From Candidatus Saccharimonadota bacterium (lineage in GTDB: Bacteria > Patescibacteriota > Gracilibacteria > UBA1369 > 2-02-FULL-48-14): 32,000 nucleotides of DNA. The translations under genes were made by a program, and so were the position numbers. The notes under the pieces are model-generated. The model was not told the origin of the DNA. It worked only from the letters and a program-made list of their open reading frames with translations, and did no database searches. This document shows, piece by piece, positions 15,705 to 28,160 of the stretch; position 1 is the stretch's first letter; every line of letters starts with the position of its first letter. Location: NCBI GenBank assembly GCA_965230905.1, contig OZ246396.1, forward strand, positions 120,001 to 152,000, in the 5' to 3' direction.

Positions 15705-18548
15705 TTACTCGATTTCATCGAGTTCCACCCCAGTGTAGTAGTACTTGATGATTTTCTCAAATGACCAACCCTTTTCCGCCAGCGCTTTGGCACCACAACC
15801 CGAGAGTCCCACCCCGTGGCCCGCAAAGGCCGTGGAGCTGCAGTAGGTGTCGGGAACGGAAACGAGATAAGGAGTGTTGGTCCAGCCCCAGACGTCTTTG
15901 GCGTTCTTGGTGGCCTTTCCATCGGACTTGCTGAAGTACGGAGTTTTGATGACGACGCCTTTGTAGCTGACCACGGTTCCTTCGGTGGACTGTGCGGCGG
16001 CTACCACATTGGGGTGGCGCAGTTCATAGCCGTAACCGAGGTATTTTTGAAAGGTGTTGGGATCGTCTTCGCCATCGTAGGGCATGCCGGGGAATTTATC
16101 GGCCTGCGTGAGGTAATAGTAGGCGTAGCTGCGGGCCAAAATAGACATGGCCTTGAGTTTTTCGGTGGGCGTGTCGTTGGTTTCTTCCGCCATACCAATC
16201 AAATAATCTTCCAGCGGAAGTTCGTTGATGAGGATGGGCGTGCCGCTCATATCGCGGACTTCGATGGTGCCGCGGAACTGGTTGTCGTTGATGCTTGTAT
16301 CCCAGCTGGCTTTTTGTTCCATGGTGGCAATTTTCATAATTCCACCGGTTTCGGGAACGAAGCGAATGGGGTTCGTGGCGGTCCATTTCTTGGACCCGGA
16401 AGTAACGGTGTAGGTTCCTTTGTCGTCCTTCACGCGCACGCGGCTGTTGGCTGAAAAGCTGCTGAGCAGCGTGGTGCCATCGTAGACATTGAAGGTGCTG
16501 GAAGAGCTTATAATAGGTTCACCCACGGCGTTATCGGGCGTGAGTTTAATGCGGATGGGATTTTCATACGCTTCGGTTTCCACCGCGGCTTCCTCACCCA
16601 CGGTGATGGTGAGCGCATAGGCGGAGCTAGTCAAATTGCTGCTGCCGAGCCGTGGACGAATAGAAAGCTCGTGTTCGCCTTCCGTGGTGGGCGCTGTGAG
16701 ATTGAAATAAATGCGGCTGCTGGAACCCGCTTTGAGACTCTTAAAGGACATGAAGGGCGTTCCCGTTTCCATGCCTTGCGGCTTAGTGAATGCCAAAGAA
16801 AAGGCATTGGACCCCGTGGTGCTCCACGTGGAAGTGGAGGTGTTTTTTACTTGAACCCAAATGTATTTTTTCTCTCCGGGATCAAAAGTCAGGTCCGTGT
16901 AGGCACTGGTGATCACCGTCTGGCTGGAACTGCTGGAGCTGCTAGACGAGCTGGAGGAACTGCTGGTGGATTTCTTTTCTTCCACTTCCACATAAAAGCC
17001 CAGGTCCATGACTTGGTCTGATTTGCTTGAACCGTTGAAGACTGGCACAGCTTCAAAATGCACGAGTCCGCCGACTTGCGTTGCGGTGGCCGTGAACGTG
17101 AAGGTCGCGGTTTTGCCGGGCGCCACGGACGTTTCGGTCATTGTAGCGGTTCGCTTTTGAGAATCTTTGGGGAGGCTGATGACTTTGTCGGCGTTGGTGT
17201 CGGCGTTGACCACCAAGTACGTGGACTTGTCCCAGGTTTTGCTACCGGTGTTTTTAATTTTAATAGACACGCCCACTTTCTTTCCTGGATCCACCACTAA
17301 GAGGTCGCGGTCTCCCACTTCTTCGTAAGCGTAAGAACCACTGCTATCTTCTTCGTTGTCCAAAGAGGCGGCCACAATGCTGCGGATGTCGGCCAAATAA
17401 TCGTAGGTGTAGCCTCCGGGACAGGTGGTGGCGTCCACATCGCGGTGGCCCAAAAGATTGGCCATGGTTTTACCGCGGTACTTGCCGGTTCCATCTATAT
17501 CGATGTCGTGGAGTTCAGCTTTTTCGTAAACCAGGGCTGTGAGCGATTGCATCATGTCACCGGGCAACTGGTCTTCTTCATAATTTCCAAGCAGAGCTAT
17601 TCCAATGGTTCCGGTGTTGTAGCCGGACGCGTGCCCTGCCACCACTCCTTCCTCTCCGGCACGGCCTTGGTACACGGTTCCGTCGGGGGCAATGATGTAG
17701 TTGTAACCAATGTCTCCCCATCCGCGGGTCGCGGCGTGGTAGTAATAAATCGCGCGGATCGCTTCATCGGGATTCTTTAAATTGGAGGTCGTGGCCGTAT
17801 GGTGCACGATGATTTTTTTGATATCTTTTGGATATTCCTGAGGCCATAAATAAGGATTCCCATCTTCGTCGGTGGTGATGCTATCCACAATTTTTAGATC
17901 GGGATCGGTTTCCGTATACGTGTCTACATTTTCATCGCTCATTTCTACATCGTAGTAACGGCTGAGGAGCAGTTCTTCGTTCGCTTCCCAATCGTCACGA
18001 GTTTGTATTTCGTTATCGTCTTTAAAAATCAGCTTTTGGAATTGGCTGAGCATGGACGATTTTCCGCCATCCACCGCATCAAAAGAAACCTTGCTGAGCT
18101 TGGGGGTAATCGACGTATCTTCGGTCGCCAAAAACACTCGGTATTGGAAGGCCTCGCTTTCATTCGTAATCACATAGGTCCACAAATCGTCGTTGGCGCT
18201 GTCGGGCTGATCATTGTCTTGTTCCAAAACTTGCCAGTCGGTCCAGGTTCCTTTGGCGTCGCGGAAACGGATTTCCAGCGCAGCGGACGTGCCCTGGGGC
18301 AAAGCTTCTTGCCAGTTCAGACCCAAGAGTTCAAAGGAGTGCTCGGCTTCGTAAACATTGGACACAAAACGACGCTCGGTTTGGTAGTGCGCGCCCAATT
18401 CCATAATGGAAGCGGAGGGCTCAAGAGGGAGCGTCAAAGACTGGTCGCCTTGAATGTGCGTGCTGCTGGAGGGTGTGCTGTGAGTCAGCACCGCCAGGAG
18501 TGGGAGCAGAAGGAGAACGCCTAAGCCGGTTTTCTTGAAAAGAGTCAT
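15705..18548 (-). CDS. Secreted cell-wall hydrolase fusion: N-acetylmuramoyl-L-alanine amidase (Amidase_2/PGRP) domain + Ig-like/linker region + SpoIID/LytB domain
   Basis: Signal peptide LGVLLLLPLLAVLTHS. The amidase core is KKIIVHHTATTS..GWGDIGYNYIIAPDGTVYQGR..GHASGYNTGTIGIALLGNY..LLGHRDVDATTCPG. The SpoIID-like C-terminus is YLIGMAEETNDTPTEKLKAMSILARSYAYYY..PYFSKSDGKATKNAKDVWG..PYLVSVPD. Confidence 0.85.
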   Translation of the reverse strand: MTLFKKTGLGVLLLLPLLAVLTHSTPSSSTHIQGDQSLTLPLEPSASIMELGAHYQTERRFVSNVYEAEHSFELLGLNWQEALPQGTSAALEIRFRDAKGTWTDWQVLEQDNDQPDSANDDLWTYVITNESEAFQYRVFLATEDTSITPKLSKVSFDAVDGGKSSMLSQFQKLIFKDDNEIQTRDDWEANEELLLSRYYDVEMSDENVDTYTETDPDLKIVDSITTDEDGNPYLWPQEYPKDIKKIIVHHTATTSNLKNPDEAIRAIYYYHAATRGWGDIGYNYIIAPDGTVYQGRAGEEGVVAGHASGYNTGTIGIALLGNYEEDQLPGDMMQSLTALVYEKAELHDIDIDGTGKYRGKTMANLLGHRDVDATTCPGGYTYDYLADIRSIVAASLDNEEDSSGSYAYEEVGDRDLLVVDPGKKVGVSIKIKNTGSKTWDKSTYLVVNADTNADKVISLPKDSQKRTATMTETSVAPGKTATFTFTATATQVGGLVHFEAVPVFNGSSKSDQVMDLGFYVEVEEKKSTSSSSSSSSSSSSSSQTVITSAYTDLTFDPGEKKYIWVQVKNTSTSTWSTTGSNAFSLAFTKPQGMETGTPFMSFKSLKAGSSSRIYFNLTAPTTEGEHELSIRPRLGSSNLTSSAYALTITVGEEAAVETEAYENPIRIKLTPDNAVGEPIISSSSTFNVYDGTTLLSSFSANSRVRVKDDKGTYTVTSGSKKWTATNPIRFVPETGGIMKIATMEQKASWDTSINDNQFRGTIEVRDMSGTPILINELPLEDYLIGMAEETNDTPTEKLKAMSILARSYAYYYLTQADKFPGMPYDGEDDPNTFQKYLGYGYELRHPNVVAAAQSTEGTVVSYKGVVIKTPYFSKSDGKATKNAKDVWGWTNTPYLVSVPDTYCSSTAFAGHGVGLSGCGAKALAEKGWSFEKIIKYYYTGVELDEIE
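16923..16970 (-). repeat. Poly-Ser linker tract (S-T-S14) inside the amidase-SpoIID gene
   Basis: The plus strand reads GCTGGA-type repeats. The minus-strand frame gives TCC ACC followed by 14 Ser codons. Confidence 0.85.
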
Positions 18549-25730: not shown

Positions 25731-26660
25731 ATGGATTGGTTTTCAATAATCATGATTGTCGGAGGCCTCACCTTGTTTGAAACGGTGAGCAGTATCGATA
25801 ATGCTATTATTAATGCTGAGGTGCTGAGCACAATGGGAGCTAAGGCTCGACGATGGTTTTTGCTCTGGGGAATATTGTTTGCGGTGTTTGTGGTTCGAGG
25901 AGTTTTGCCTTGGCTGATTGTATTTTTTACGGCGCCTGAACTTGGTTTCTTTGGTTCTCTCACGGCGACCTTTAGCAATGATCCAGCTGTAATCGAAGCC
26001 ATTGAATCTTCTGCCCCTATCCTACTGAATGGAGGCGGAGTCTTCCTCCTTTTCCTCTTCTTCCATTGGCTCTTTTTGGAACCAAAAAACTATGGACTGC
26101 GTGGCGAGAAATTCTTTCACGCTCAAGGAGTTTGGTTTTATGCCGTGGTGTCCATTCTACTCTGTCTCATCGTTTGGTACAGCCTACAGGTTGACCCAAA
26201 CATGGCCTTTGGGGCTGTAGTGGGTTCAACGGCCTTCTTCATCACCCACGGGTTTAAAGAGAATGCTGAAAAAGCCGAGGCGGATATGCTTAAGAAAGGA
26301 GGTATGTCGGATGTGAGCAAAATTTTGTACCTGGAAGCAATTGATACCACTTTCTCTATTGATGGAGTTTTGGGAGCTTTTGCCTTCACGCTTTCGGTTC
26401 CTCTCATTCTCATTGGGAATGGATTTGGAGCCATTGTAGTGCGTCAGCTCACCATTAGTAATATCGACCGCATTAAAAAATACATCTACCTTAAAAATGG
26501 TGCGATGTACTCCATATTGATTCTGGGAGGAGTGATGCTTGCTCACAGTTTTGGTGCCCATATCCCTGAATGGTTTTCTCCAGTAAGCACCGCCCTTGTG
26601 ATTTTGTTTTTCTTTATCAAATCAAAAAAGGCGATCCCGTTTTTACCTAAGACAGCCTGA
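25731..26660 (+). CDS. DUF475 / TerC-like integral membrane protein
   Basis: MDWFSIIMIVGGLTLFETVSSIDNAIINAEVL matches the LE.S.S.DNA..NA pattern of DUF475/TerC-type proteins. The protein is polytopic. Confidence 0.7.
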   Translation: MDWFSIIMIVGGLTLFETVSSIDNAIINAEVLSTMGAKARRWFLLWGILFAVFVVRGVLPWLIVFFTAPELGFFGSLTATFSNDPAVIEAIESSAPILLNGGGVFLLFLFFHWLFLEPKNYGLRGEKFFHAQGVWFYAVVSILLCLIVWYSLQVDPNMAFGAVVGSTAFFITHGFKENAEKAEADMLKKGGMSDVSKILYLEAIDTTFSIDGVLGAFAFTLSVPLILIGNGFGAIVVRQLTISNIDRIKKYIYLKNGAMYSILILGGVMLAHSFGAHIPEWFSPVSTALVILFFFIKSKKAIPFLPKTA

Positions 26661-26666
26661 TCACAG

Positions 26667-26771
26667 TTTTTAGTGGGACCTTTCTGAAATACATAAACTA
26701 AAAGGAAGCGGCGAAAAAGATCATGATCTTTTTCAGAGCGCTCCTGTGTTTCAGAAAGGTCCCACTAAAAA
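26667..26771. repeat. 105-bp nested inverted-repeat element: 23-bp perfect terminal arms enclosing a 22-bp perfect palindrome
   Basis: TTTTTAGTGGGACCTTTCTGAAA (26667-26689) is the exact reverse complement of 26749-26771. The inner palindrome GAAAAAGATCATGATCTTTTTC lies at 26713-26734. The element starts 7 nt after the DUF475 stop. Confidence 0.85.
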
Positions 26772-27274
26772 AATCGCCCTAAATGTTTCTAATCGTTGTT
26801 CAGCATCAGGTGAGAGCTTGGAGTAAAGGTGCAGAACATTGCTGTAACTGAGCTTTTACTTAATCTGTTGATCGTTTCCCGAGGGAAAGACCGGCCAGAA
26901 AAAGGTATCTGTCTATTCCTTCTTTCTGAGTACTTAAACCCACTGCAGAACGAGGTGATAGTGGCCAACATATCTTTGGGAAGATGATGTCCATCCAGGC
27001 TTACTAGGCGATTAGGAACTTAGGGCGCAGGAGGTGAAAAGTGGTGCTAACCTGATGGGTTGTCCGATTTTTGGGTACTTCGTGACCGAAAATCGGTTCG
27101 GGGGTTCCATCGTAGGGGCTTTATACCTTTTGTGCCGTAAGTTTCGCGCCGTGTTTTCAAAGATCATCATATTATTGTACCACGACTTGCTAGTTTTCGC
27201 AAGGGGCTTGAAATGAGCTTTGCATGGCAGTACAATGTTTATGACGATCCTAGCGATGAGAAACCATCTCGGAT
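26772..27274. other. ORF-poor region of about 0.5 kb with dense local hairpin potential (candidate structured ncRNA, strand unresolved)
   Basis: Only two 60-aa ORFs without a convincing RBS. Hairpins include CAGAAAAAGG..CCTTCTTTCTG (26896-26929), CCGATTTT..AAAATCGG (27063-27095) and ATTGTAC..GTACAAT (27174-27236). The region is bounded on the right by a bidirectional terminator-like hairpin. Confidence 0.3.
27242..27256. repeat. 15-nt exact direct repeat copy A (TGACGATCCTAGCGA)
   Basis: Identical to 27351-27365, which lies inside the tRNA-like gene (its central stem-loop). Confidence 0.9.
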
Positions 27275-27306
27275 AAAAGGCCCTCTTCGTGAGAGCCTTT
27301 TATTTT
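27275..27306. terminator. Bidirectional intrinsic-terminator-like hairpin
   Basis: AAAAGGCCCTC-TTCGT-GAGAGCCTTTTATTTT, a 7-bp stem with one mismatch flanked by an A-run and a T-run. The T-run is good on the plus strand and weaker (TTTTATCC) on the minus strand, 6-11 nt after the CCA of the tRNA-like gene. Confidence 0.5.
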
Positions 27307-27311
27307 GTCAG

Positions 27312-27385
27312 TGGTGGACCCGCGGGGAGTCGAACCCCGGTCGCTTAGGTTGACGATCCTAGCGACGGATGCCAATCCCGGGCCC
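27312..27385 (-). ncRNA. 74-nt tRNA-like element with tmRNA-TLD-like topology (acceptor stem with G3:U70, T arm, encoded ACCA; no cloverleaf, no tag region)
   Basis: The minus strand reads GGGCCCG-GGATTGGCATCC-GTCGCTAGG-ATCGTCAA-CCTAAGCGAC-CGGGG-TTCGACT-CCCCG-CGGGTCC-A-CCA. The acceptor stem (7 bp) and T arm (5 bp, 7-nt loop) are canonical. The D and anticodon arms are replaced by a 4-bp/4-nt mini-hairpin and one long hairpin. Confidence 0.6.
27351..27365. repeat. 15-nt exact direct repeat copy B (TGACGATCCTAGCGA) inside the tRNA-like gene
   Basis: Identical to 27242-27256. Confidence 0.9.
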
Positions 27386-27431
27386 ACAAAACACTGACTC
27401 ATCTGTTATAACTGACCGACCTTTATAAAAA

Positions 27432-27475
27432 CCTGAAATTTTCCTGAATTATTTCTGAATTAATCCTGACAAATC
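27432..27475. repeat. Four tandem 11-bp repeats (CCTGAAATTTT CCTGAATTATT TCTGAATTAAT CCTGACAAATC)
   Basis: Read directly from the sequence. The period matches one helical turn. The array lies 47-90 nt upstream (minus-strand sense) of the tRNA-like gene. Its CTGAAT core is shared with the boxes at 24937-25098. Confidence 0.8.
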
Positions 27476-27578
27476 GCGCAATTCTCACTGTGCAAATGTT
27501 CAAACCCCTCCGCCAAGTTTAACCTGAAAGTTCCGGACCGGTCCGGGATGCCAACCTGTAAAATCATTTCTAGGCAGT

Positions 27579-28160
27579 ATGACGAAAATGTGTAAAACTG
27601 AGTGCATGCTCCCCCACGGCCCCAACCCCTACTTCACCCTTTCATCTGAATTGCTGCATGAGCGAACGTATGTGCGTTTTTTGAAAGACAAAGTTCAAAT
27701 AGATGAGATTAAAAAAGACTACAGCTACATGGACGTGGACGACAGTGTGGGCATTGTGGCGCTGAATGAAAAAGGCGAGATCGCGTTGGTGGGTCAGTGG
27801 CGCTACCCCATTAAAGAATACAGGTGGGAAATTCCCGCAGGCATGAGTGAACCGGGCGAGACTCCGCTTGAGAACGCGCAGCGGGAACTTATGGAAGAGT
27901 CTGGCGTGAGTGCTTTGAAATGGACGGCGTTCGGGTCGTACCAAATGGACGGGTCTAAAATGAATCAACAAAATCACCTGTTTTTGGCGGAGCAGCTTAC
28001 GGTGGGTGACAACGCGCCGATGATAGACGAGAAATTAGAACGGCTGTGGATTCCGCTGGAAGAAGCCATCGCTTTAGTGGAAGCGGGCGAACTCCGGGAT
28101 GGACTCACCGTGATTGCCTTGTTTAGAGTTCAATCGTATCTCCAAAAGCAGGGACGATAA
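27579..28160 (+). CDS. Nudix hydrolase (ADP-ribose pyrophosphatase-like)
   Basis: Nudix box GMSEPGETPLENAQRELMEESGV (Gx5Ex7REuxEExGu). The start is uncertain (Met codons at 27579, 27588 and 27606). The 3' end overlaps the convergent beta-CASP gene by 38 nt. Confidence 0.85.
   Translation: MTKMCKTECMLPHGPNPYFTLSSELLHERTYVRFLKDKVQIDEIKKDYSYMDVDDSVGIVALNEKGEIALVGQWRYPIKEYRWEIPAGMSEPGETPLENAQRELMEESGVSALKWTAFGSYQMDGSKMNQQNHLFLAEQLTVGDNAPMIDEKLERLWIPLEEAIALVEAGELRDGLTVIALFRVQSYLQKQGR

Follow-up and report, generated by a model that had tools for sequence, protein, structure and literature searches.

What is encoded in the long gap between a DUF475 gene and a Nudix gene in the 32,000-nucleotide stretch of DNA analysed here (the window; positions 120,001 to 152,000 of contig OZ246396.1, from a Candidatus Saccharimonadota genome designated G000)? 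A preliminary description had considered this gap very long and had proposed that it holds a large structured RNA of no known family, the strand and ends of which were left open. The comparative evidence places the RNA on the minus strand, from about position 27170 to 26767 of the window, and this segment is probably a stand-alone gene for a highly structured noncoding RNA (ncRNA) of a new, lineage-restricted family, whose product would probably act in trans. The segment has a promoter and a terminator of its own, is conserved beyond one genome, contains helices that covary and has no conserved open reading frame (ORF), the features by which an independent ncRNA gene is recognized. The parts of the gene are the following.

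26767-27170, minus strand: the whole ncRNA, about 400 nt, delimited by the limits of conservation, the promoter and the U-run.
27174-27202, minus strand: a sigma-70-type promoter found by pattern scan, with the -35 box TTGCGA at 27202-27197, a 17-nt spacer and the extended -10 box TGgTACAAT, of which TACAAT lies at 27179-27174.
27146-27170, minus strand: the 5' leader, with a largely conserved yUUGAAAA motif that is kept in most rows of the alignment.
27131-27145, minus strand: strand A, GAAACUUACGGCACA, complementary to strand B and supported by covariation.
27030-27130, minus strand: hairpin P1a, whose basal helix covaries and whose expanded, variable apex includes the stem at 27063-27095.
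27007-27029, minus strand: strand B, UGCGCCCUAAGUUCC plus UAAUCGCC, the partner of both A and C, covarying with both.
26773-27030, minus strand: the 3' domain, a multi-helix junction closed by helix B:C and comprising hairpins hp1-hp4 and a long-range helix, matched over its full length by covariance models R1 and R2 and supported by covariation.
27004-26995 and 26810-26799, minus strand: the segments GUAAGCCUGG and CCUGAUGCUGAA, which contain the AGC and the GCU, respectively, of the covarying 3-bp long-range helix.
26973-26984, minus strand: the apex of hp1, a near-invariant loop UUCCCAAAG on a strongly covarying stem.
26775-26795, minus strand: strand C, CGAUUAGAAACAUUUAGGGCG, the 3' strand of the closing helix B:C, supported by covariation.
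26767-26774, minus strand: the U-run, directly after B:C.

The promoter hexamers and their 17-nt spacing are kept in the relatives that were read, and the sequence of the spacer is variable. In these homologues the -35 box on the minus strand is TTGCGA or TTGCAA and the extended -10 box is TGnTACAAT, TATCAT or TATAAT; members from across the order carry TTGACT/TTGCTT-17-TGgTATtAT. Transcription would start near 27168 +/- 3. At the low-coordinate edge, conservation ends exactly at UUAGGGCG and the U-run follows, within which the 3' end of the RNA is expected. In nearly all units that stand alone or come last, a T-run comes after the final base of C. The boxes also account for a 7-bp stem, ATTGTAC/GTACAAT with nested TTGC/GCAA helices (27174-27236), that had been ascribed to the RNA: in the minus-strand promoter, ATTGTAC corresponds to the -10 box and TTGCGA to the -35 box.

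The BLAST search of relatives that had been proposed for this locus yielded homologues in 13 of the 27 genomes of the source family, at 70-92% identity, with conserved stretches at 26767-27040 and 27120-27210. In G000 itself the RNA is single-copy (nhmmer), and one or two copies are present per genome. Model R1, which represents the 3' domain and was built from 15 units, finds full-length matches in 44 of 150 genomes of the order with E values of 1e-15 to 1e-71, one match lying on a contig that is cut off. These matches fall in 19 of 21 genomes of the source family and in members of eleven other families of the order; beyond the order, R1 has matches in two further families of the class only. 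With model R2, built from 39 sequences, 45 of the 150 genomes of the order have a match, and the E value is either far below 1e-9 (most below 1e-31) or there is no match. Because almost all matches are either very strong or absent, the patchiness of the family, which is present in about 30% of the genomes of the order, is real and is not a problem of sensitivity. The RNA is about 300 nt long in most members and about 340-400 nt in the source family, the greater length there being due to an expanded apex of the 5' hairpin.

The 3' domain is about 225-255 nt long and contains four hairpins, two of which have GNRA-type caps. RNAalifold on 15 units predicts 51 pairs in this domain, 24 of them with compensatory changes. 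In an alignment of 39 sequences, which was fitted to the covariance model and is hence biased toward its structure, 94.6% of the cells pair, versus 35-46% when slid, compensatory changes are found in 38 of the 51 pairs, and the covariation score is 0.43 versus at most 0.10. The alignment of 75 distinct sequences, metagenomic ones included, carries the same bias and gives 94.2% versus 36-45%, compensatory changes in 31 of 45 pairs, and a score of 0.43 versus 0.11 or less. The hairpins hp3 and hp4 are variable and mostly carry GNRA-type caps in the sequences read. A CCC:GGG contact is possible between the loop of hp1 and the GGG of the hp2 loop, both sides being invariant. The long-range helix pairs, across the family, AGC in (A/G)UAAGCCUGG with GCU in CUGAUGCUGAA; its C:G pair is changed to U:A in 17 sequences and its A:U pair to G:C in 5 sequences of the 75-sequence set. 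An all-against-all scan of alignment columns for extra pseudoknots gave nothing usable, being swamped by column pairs compatible with G:U.

The 5' region is also supported by covariation, and here the alignment, made with MAFFT, was not fitted to the structure. Helix A:B stacks on P1a. Both sides change in 6 of the 15 pairs of A:B and in 8 of the 10 pairs of the basal helix of P1a; for the two helices together, 88.6% of the cells pair versus 29-47% when slid, compensatory changes occur in 14 of 25 pairs, and the covariation score reaches 0.31 versus at most 0.11. The spacing from A to B is about 25-37 nt outside the source family and 37-180 nt or more within it. Two further stems that had been put forward as parts of the RNA do not fare as well. 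The 8-bp stem at 27063-27095 is part of an interval (about 27040-27120) for which most of the aligned relatives have a much shorter or a different sequence, the alignment showing related sequence only in genomes G005 and G011, and the 10-bp stem at 26896-26929 is not conserved beyond the genus and overlaps the 3' strand of a competing helix that is conserved and covaries. All the stems of the preliminary description are present in the sequence, but most of them turned out to be something else; three of the four landmarks that it cited are promoter boxes, lineage-limited sequence or the neighbouring cassette described below.

The internal strand B has two partners. Helix B:C, which closes the 3' domain, is about 18-20 bp long; in its helices 1 and 2, 89-95% of the cells pair, and in 9-10 of 15 pairs both partners have changed. 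A:B and B:C overlap over about 15 nt of B, and about 8 more B:C pairs lie beyond the reach of A. Across the order A and C both track B: where B is CCUCAAG, A is CUUGGAG and C is CUUGGGG, and where B is UUCCCAAG, A is GGGGGAAG and C is CUUGGGA. The calculated duplex energies overlap, A:B having -11 to -24 and B:C -15.5 to -24.5 kcal/mol, and the minimum free energy fold contains B:C in three members and A:B in two. These comparisons show that the two predicted helices are mutually exclusive over about 15 nt, that both are kept by compensatory evolution and that they are of similar stability. Since B:C directly precedes the U-run, it would also be a terminator stem, and the two elements together are predicted to constitute the intrinsic terminator of the RNA.

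A sequence of events can be postulated from this arrangement. A:B would form first during transcription. After the 3' domain has been synthesized, C would nucleate on the part of B that is free of A and would displace A by branch migration. The completed B:C helix would lock the junction fold and would at the same time provide the stem of the intrinsic terminator. Once mature, the RNA may alternate between two states, one in which the 5' arm is free and one in which the 3' tail is. An RNA in which a 5' and a 3' strand compete for one internal strand, and in which one of the resulting helices doubles as a terminator, would be a model for co-transcriptional folding and RNA switching.

In four lineages the RNA is present as two units in tandem (L045 1501-2104, L051 1130-1748, L056 43-722 and L117 7736-8249). 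The tandem pairs lie under one promoter, the upstream unit runs straight into the leader of the second unit, and the upstream unit lacks the terminator U-run in all four pairs examined. From the tandem arrangement one may suspect that a transcript of two units is under selection and, more tentatively, that the working form is a dimer. If a mode of action is to be chosen, the RNA would most likely act in trans as a folded RNA or a ribonucleoprotein, possibly as a dimer. A more specific proposal is offered tentatively, as one that has the larger part of the probability against it: the RNA may be an autonomous, trans-acting switch or catalyst of an undescribed kind, in which a ligand, a protein or another RNA drives the exchange of A and C on B and sensing is thereby coupled to the exposure of a single-stranded arm or to the termination and stability of the RNA itself, possibly in a dimer or higher multimer. 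Bacteria of the Candidate Phyla Radiation (CPR) such as Peribacteria are uncultured and have tiny genomes in which many standard systems are missing. An autonomous RNA switch, if that is what the RNA is, would serve bacteria stripped of much of the usual protein-based machinery. An RNA of 300-400 nt that is kept under a near-consensus promoter, sometimes in two copies, is likely to be important to its hosts.

Three strands forming mutually exclusive helices of near-equal energy, one of them followed by a U-run, would also suit an attenuator or riboswitch-like element acting in cis, in which A:B would be the antiterminator and B:C with the U-run the terminator, and in which read-through into the sequence downstream, often antisense to a convergent gene such as DUF475, would be set by a 3' domain that responds to a ligand or factor. 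Tandem units are typical of riboswitches too. About 25 of 34 loci have a close, convergent gene as the next one, and DUF475 is the convergent neighbour in 12 loci of the source family, but these counts come from related genomes and are not independent. The genes downstream are unrelated between lineages (FkbM methyltransferase, AbiEii, ABC-F, VTT/PAP2 and unknown proteins), which argues that the RNA is not a leader, and several loci have no gene on the same strand within 270-560 nt. The association with DUF475 is weak as well: both are present in 21 genomes, the RNA alone in 24 and DUF475 alone in 17, and outside the source family the two are found on different contigs. In G000 a perfect palindrome of 105 bp separates the end of the RNA from DUF475. 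Regulation in cis is, on this evidence, an unlikely role for the RNA.

The spread of the family bears on a different explanation, namely that the RNA belongs to a mobile or selfish element, or is an accessory RNA (for example, one related to defence) that spreads horizontally, which would explain a distribution that is patchy and yet highly conserved. Public collections, comprising 185,579 species genomes, metagenomes and 2.9 million viral contigs, were searched with a gapped pattern of 24 bases. Among the species genomes the pattern was found in 28 stretches, which are labelled Peribacteria, Peregrinibacteria, Gracilibacteria or Patescibacteria with one exception, the 12-kb contig JBLIGW010000027.1 (L107), labelled Oceanicoccus sp.; its score is identical to that of the copy in genome G017, and the contig is probably mis-binned. 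A further 31 stretches were found in metagenomes. The occurrence of the RNA in some 30% of the genomes of the order with all-or-nothing scores, its one or two copies per genome, its tandem duplication in four lineages, a genomic context that varies from family to family and the two other inserted elements that flank it in G000 would all agree with mobility. The 2.9 million viral contigs, however, gave no match to the pattern, chromosome-sized contigs (100-283 kb) carry several of the metagenome matches, and the RNA is not accompanied by a recombinase, a reverse transcriptase or any other conserved protein gene. The gene order with DUF475, Nudix and RNase J is stably kept in several genera of the source family. 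Flanking repeats were not noticed, no systematic search having been made for them. A mobile origin is accordingly given even less weight than regulation in cis.

The assignment of the RNA to the minus strand has to be reconciled with the folding of the single G000 sequence. The preliminary description had emphasized the density of hairpins in the region; when compared with shuffled sequences, the plus strand is indeed more stable (z = -3.46), but the minus strand is not exceptional (z = -1.29). The case for a structured RNA is made because of conservation and covariation, not because of hairpin density. A function of the plus strand, for instance as a structured 3' untranslated region of the DUF475 gene, which in the source family lies directly upstream on that strand, would fit the plus-strand stability, but is very improbable in view of the comparative data. 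In the minus sense G:U pairs are about five times as frequent as A.C combinations (171 versus 33 in the 3' domain, 102 versus 21 in the 5' hairpin), so that the plus strand would carry conserved C.A mismatches, and one position is U:G in 58 of 75 sequences. Counted over loops of four bases whose stems have at least 4 bp, GNRA loops number 34 in the sense and 14 in the antisense direction, and UNCG loops 7 and 1, respectively; the variable hairpins are capped by UUCG, GAAA or GCAA only when read in the minus sense. The conserved promoter and U-run make sense on the minus strand only, and outside the source family the RNA is not beside DUF475. The comparative evidence is decisive for the minus strand despite the z-score of the plus strand. 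The least probable explanation, a decayed protein-coding gene or conserved spacer DNA that has no function as RNA, could appeal to short ORFs such as those of 52 amino acids at 27012-27170 and 60 amino acids at 26789-26971, but no ORF keeps its position, frame or strand across 36 homologues (their longest ORFs, of 24-92 amino acids, vary in strand and frame, which bears out the preliminary description's view that no ORF is convincing), the substitutions are compensatory in helices and not codon-patterned, and the promoter and terminator signals are conserved.

The reading of the segment as a gene for an ncRNA was also correct in that the RNA, conserved across the order and covarying strongly, corresponds to none of the 4227 families of Rfam 15, no family of which matches the locus. 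The scan with Infernal that had been suggested, run with cmscan on the window at gathering thresholds, reports a tRNA-Gly only, and RNase P RNA, transfer-messenger RNA (tmRNA), 6S RNA, signal recognition particle (SRP) RNA, ROOL and GOLLD are absent among the matches in the RNA region. A permissive cmscan of 26600-27700 (E up to 10) reports nothing in 26772-27274, and seven diverse members of the family have no match in Rfam at E up to 1. A full-text search of the literature found no description of the RNA. As judged by these searches, the predicted RNA is a previously uncatalogued family confined to the lineage of the ultra-small Peribacteria/Peregrinibacteria.

Several points weigh against the proposal that the segment is a gene for a trans-acting ncRNA of this kind. 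The promoter, the start site and the 3' end are putative, having been read from the sequence only, and the minus strand of the G000 sequence is not exceptionally stable compared with its shuffled counterparts, as stated above, whereas the plus strand folds better. The patchy spread speaks against an essential housekeeping role. The order of folding, the strand displacement and the toggling are likewise postulated, and the importance of one of the two helices may be transient only. The idea of a dimer, drawn from tandem gene arrangements alone, is a possibility. No partner protein, ligand or target of the RNA has been identified; sites resembling B, A or C are not enriched in the G000 genome, and the recurring protein neighbours (RNase J, Nudix and DUF475) reflect synteny within lineages only.

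The rest of the gap holds elements that do not belong to the RNA. The gap was rightly called very long: it extends over about 945 bp from the stop codon of DUF475 at 26660 to the start of the Nudix gene, which is most likely the ATG at 27606 (MLPHGPNPYF...), aligned with three relatives, and not the upstream ATG at 27579 of the longest ORF. The gap consists of four pieces, a palindrome, the RNA gene, the promoter of the RNA and a cassette with a tmRNA-like tRNA-like domain (TLD) gene. The elements outside the RNA are the following.

26667-26771, no strand: a palindrome of 105 bp resembling a miniature inverted-repeat transposable element (MITE), self-complementary, between the DUF475 stop and the 3' end of the RNA.
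About 27221-27585, minus strand: an inserted cassette of about 365 bp with the TLD gene, a hairpin, a direct repeat and a repeated promoter-like region.
27406-27504, no strand given: the promoter-like repeat, which recurs in G000 at 942517-942603, 1189951-1190019, 41108-41184, 412193-412237 and 753040-753082.

The palindrome looks like a MITE-like insertion. It is missing at homologous loci, partial copies are present in G000 at 17135-17199 and 624637-624696, and many occur in related genomes. In the cassette, the TLD gene (74 nt, 27312-27385, minus strand) is recognized in the permissive cmscan by RF00023 at 38.3 bits, with the mRNA-like domain deleted; the hairpin lies at 27275-27306 and the 15-nt direct repeat at 27242-27256 and 27351-27365. 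G000 has three TLD mini-genes in all, the other two being at 173606-173853 and about 41000-41190. Each has its own variable hairpin and a downstream copy, 14-15 nt long, of the 5' strand plus loop of that hairpin. The repeat differs from copy to copy, matches within each copy and is located just past the hairpin that follows the CCA end.

The site of the cassette is empty in genomes G003, G006 and G042, in which the Nudix gene starts at most about 30 nt past the -35 box of the RNA promoter. The absence of the cassette from these genomes makes the tRNA-like gene an incidental neighbour of the RNA, and the link between the two that had been drawn by analogy with GOLLD and ROOL is given up; the mini-tmRNA-like gene is unlinked to the RNA and came by insertion. 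The hairpin at 27275-27306, formerly regarded as a terminator at the end of the RNA, comes after the CCA end of the TLD gene on the minus strand. Its position upstream of the RNA promoter means that the minus-strand RNA cannot end there. The interval 26772-27274, which had been treated as one region, therefore covers the RNA and its promoter but also takes in part of the cassette. The promoter-like repeat, TTTGTCAG..AATTCAG..TTTCAGG..TATAAAGGTCGG, is found upstream of TLD genes and of several protein-coding genes and is common in relatives. A promoter-like site is also present on the plus strand at 27208-27236 (TTGAAA-17-TACAAT), back to back with the RNA promoter and directed toward the repeat and hairpin of the TLD cassette.

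A number of known RNAs were considered as identities of the RNA and were rejected. It is not the missing mRNA-like part of a two-piece tmRNA, of which the adjacent TLD would be the other piece: a full tmRNA is encoded elsewhere in G000 (523805-524238, 122 bits), the TLD cassette is inserted and the RNA has its own promoter. The sole local match of the tmRNA models (RF00023 and the permuted RF04321) is the TLD at 27312-27385, outside the RNA. A divergent RNase P RNA, a candidate prompted by a plus-strand string resembling CCAGGCUUAC, was dismissed, the RNase P RNA of G000 being located at 758330-758727 (133.7 bits) and the RNA region having no cmscan match to RF00010/RF00011. The RNA was also considered as the missing SRP RNA. 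The SRP models RF00169 and RF01854 match neither the RNA region nor the rest of this genome, and RF00169 matches none of 150 genomes of the order. This identity was rejected, the order being without detectable Ffh and the RNA occurring in only about 30% of its genomes. The M domain of Ffh was found in none of the 150 genomes, and neither the SRP54-type GTPase domain nor ffh was found in G000, which is closed and 99.45% complete, while the control genomes all score. The source lineage seems to be devoid of the SRP pathway, as judged from its genomes. This agrees with a published remark that many CPR bacteria are devoid of SRP subunits (PMC8080830). A candidate SRP RNA near position 394400 of G000, picked up by a regular expression, was unconfirmed by cmscan and has been withdrawn.

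6S RNA is rod-shaped and about 185 nt long, its 5' and 3' ends being paired with each other and its middle forming a large bubble. Its model, RF00013, has no match in the RNA region or in G000, and the consensus described here, a 5' hairpin plus a multi-branch 3' domain, is not a rod. A link to DUF475, whether as a metal-sensing leader or as an antisense RNA, was rejected on account of the weak co-occurrence and of the location on different contigs outside the source family. A trans-acting antisense RNA with B-like targets was rejected because sites like B, A or C are not enriched in G000. A leaderless ORF of 52 amino acids at the 5' end of the RNA is not conserved.

The closest likeness is to the large bacterial RNAs OLE, ROOL, GOLLD and raiA. 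Like these, the RNA is several hundred nucleotides long and combines a multi-helix junction with GNRA-capped hairpins and conserved joining strands; it likewise has its own promoter and terminator and occurs patchily in one lineage, sometimes in multiple copies. Unlike members of these classes, it has no match to their Rfam models at E up to 10 at the locus or up to 1 in the seven members, and the HEARO model likewise has no match in either. The RNA is smaller than GOLLD and ROOL and is absent from the viral contigs searched. GOLLD and ROOL often lie beside tRNA genes or in prophages, whereas the tRNA-like neighbour found here is inserted and viral matches are lacking.

With attenuators and riboswitch platforms, such as the T-box and purine riboswitches, the RNA shares the use of three strands in two helices that exclude each other, a U-run coming after one of them, the participation of the closing helix of the folded domain in the switch, and the occurrence of tandems. 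It differs from them in having no conserved downstream gene or operon, the downstream genes being mostly convergent. The whole folded domain is inside the terminator loop, and the competitor strand is upstream and not downstream of the domain, in contrast to riboswitch platforms. The riboswitch and T-box models of Rfam match neither the locus nor the seven members.

A resemblance of another kind is to mRNAs of the hok type. There, a local hairpin initially sequesters a 5' element, which afterwards enters into competition with an element at the 3' terminus, and the fold requires a finished 3' end. The RNA described here, unlike hok-type mRNAs, has no toxin ORF or antisense partner, and the competition is for an internal strand instead of being a direct pairing of the 5' and 3' ends. 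To our knowledge, competition of 5' and 3' strands for one internal strand is not a described feature of the OLE, ROOL, GOLLD and raiA classes. The RNA is placed as a new family among the orphan "ornate" bacterial RNAs, from which its 5'/3' strand-exchange design sets it apart as unusual.

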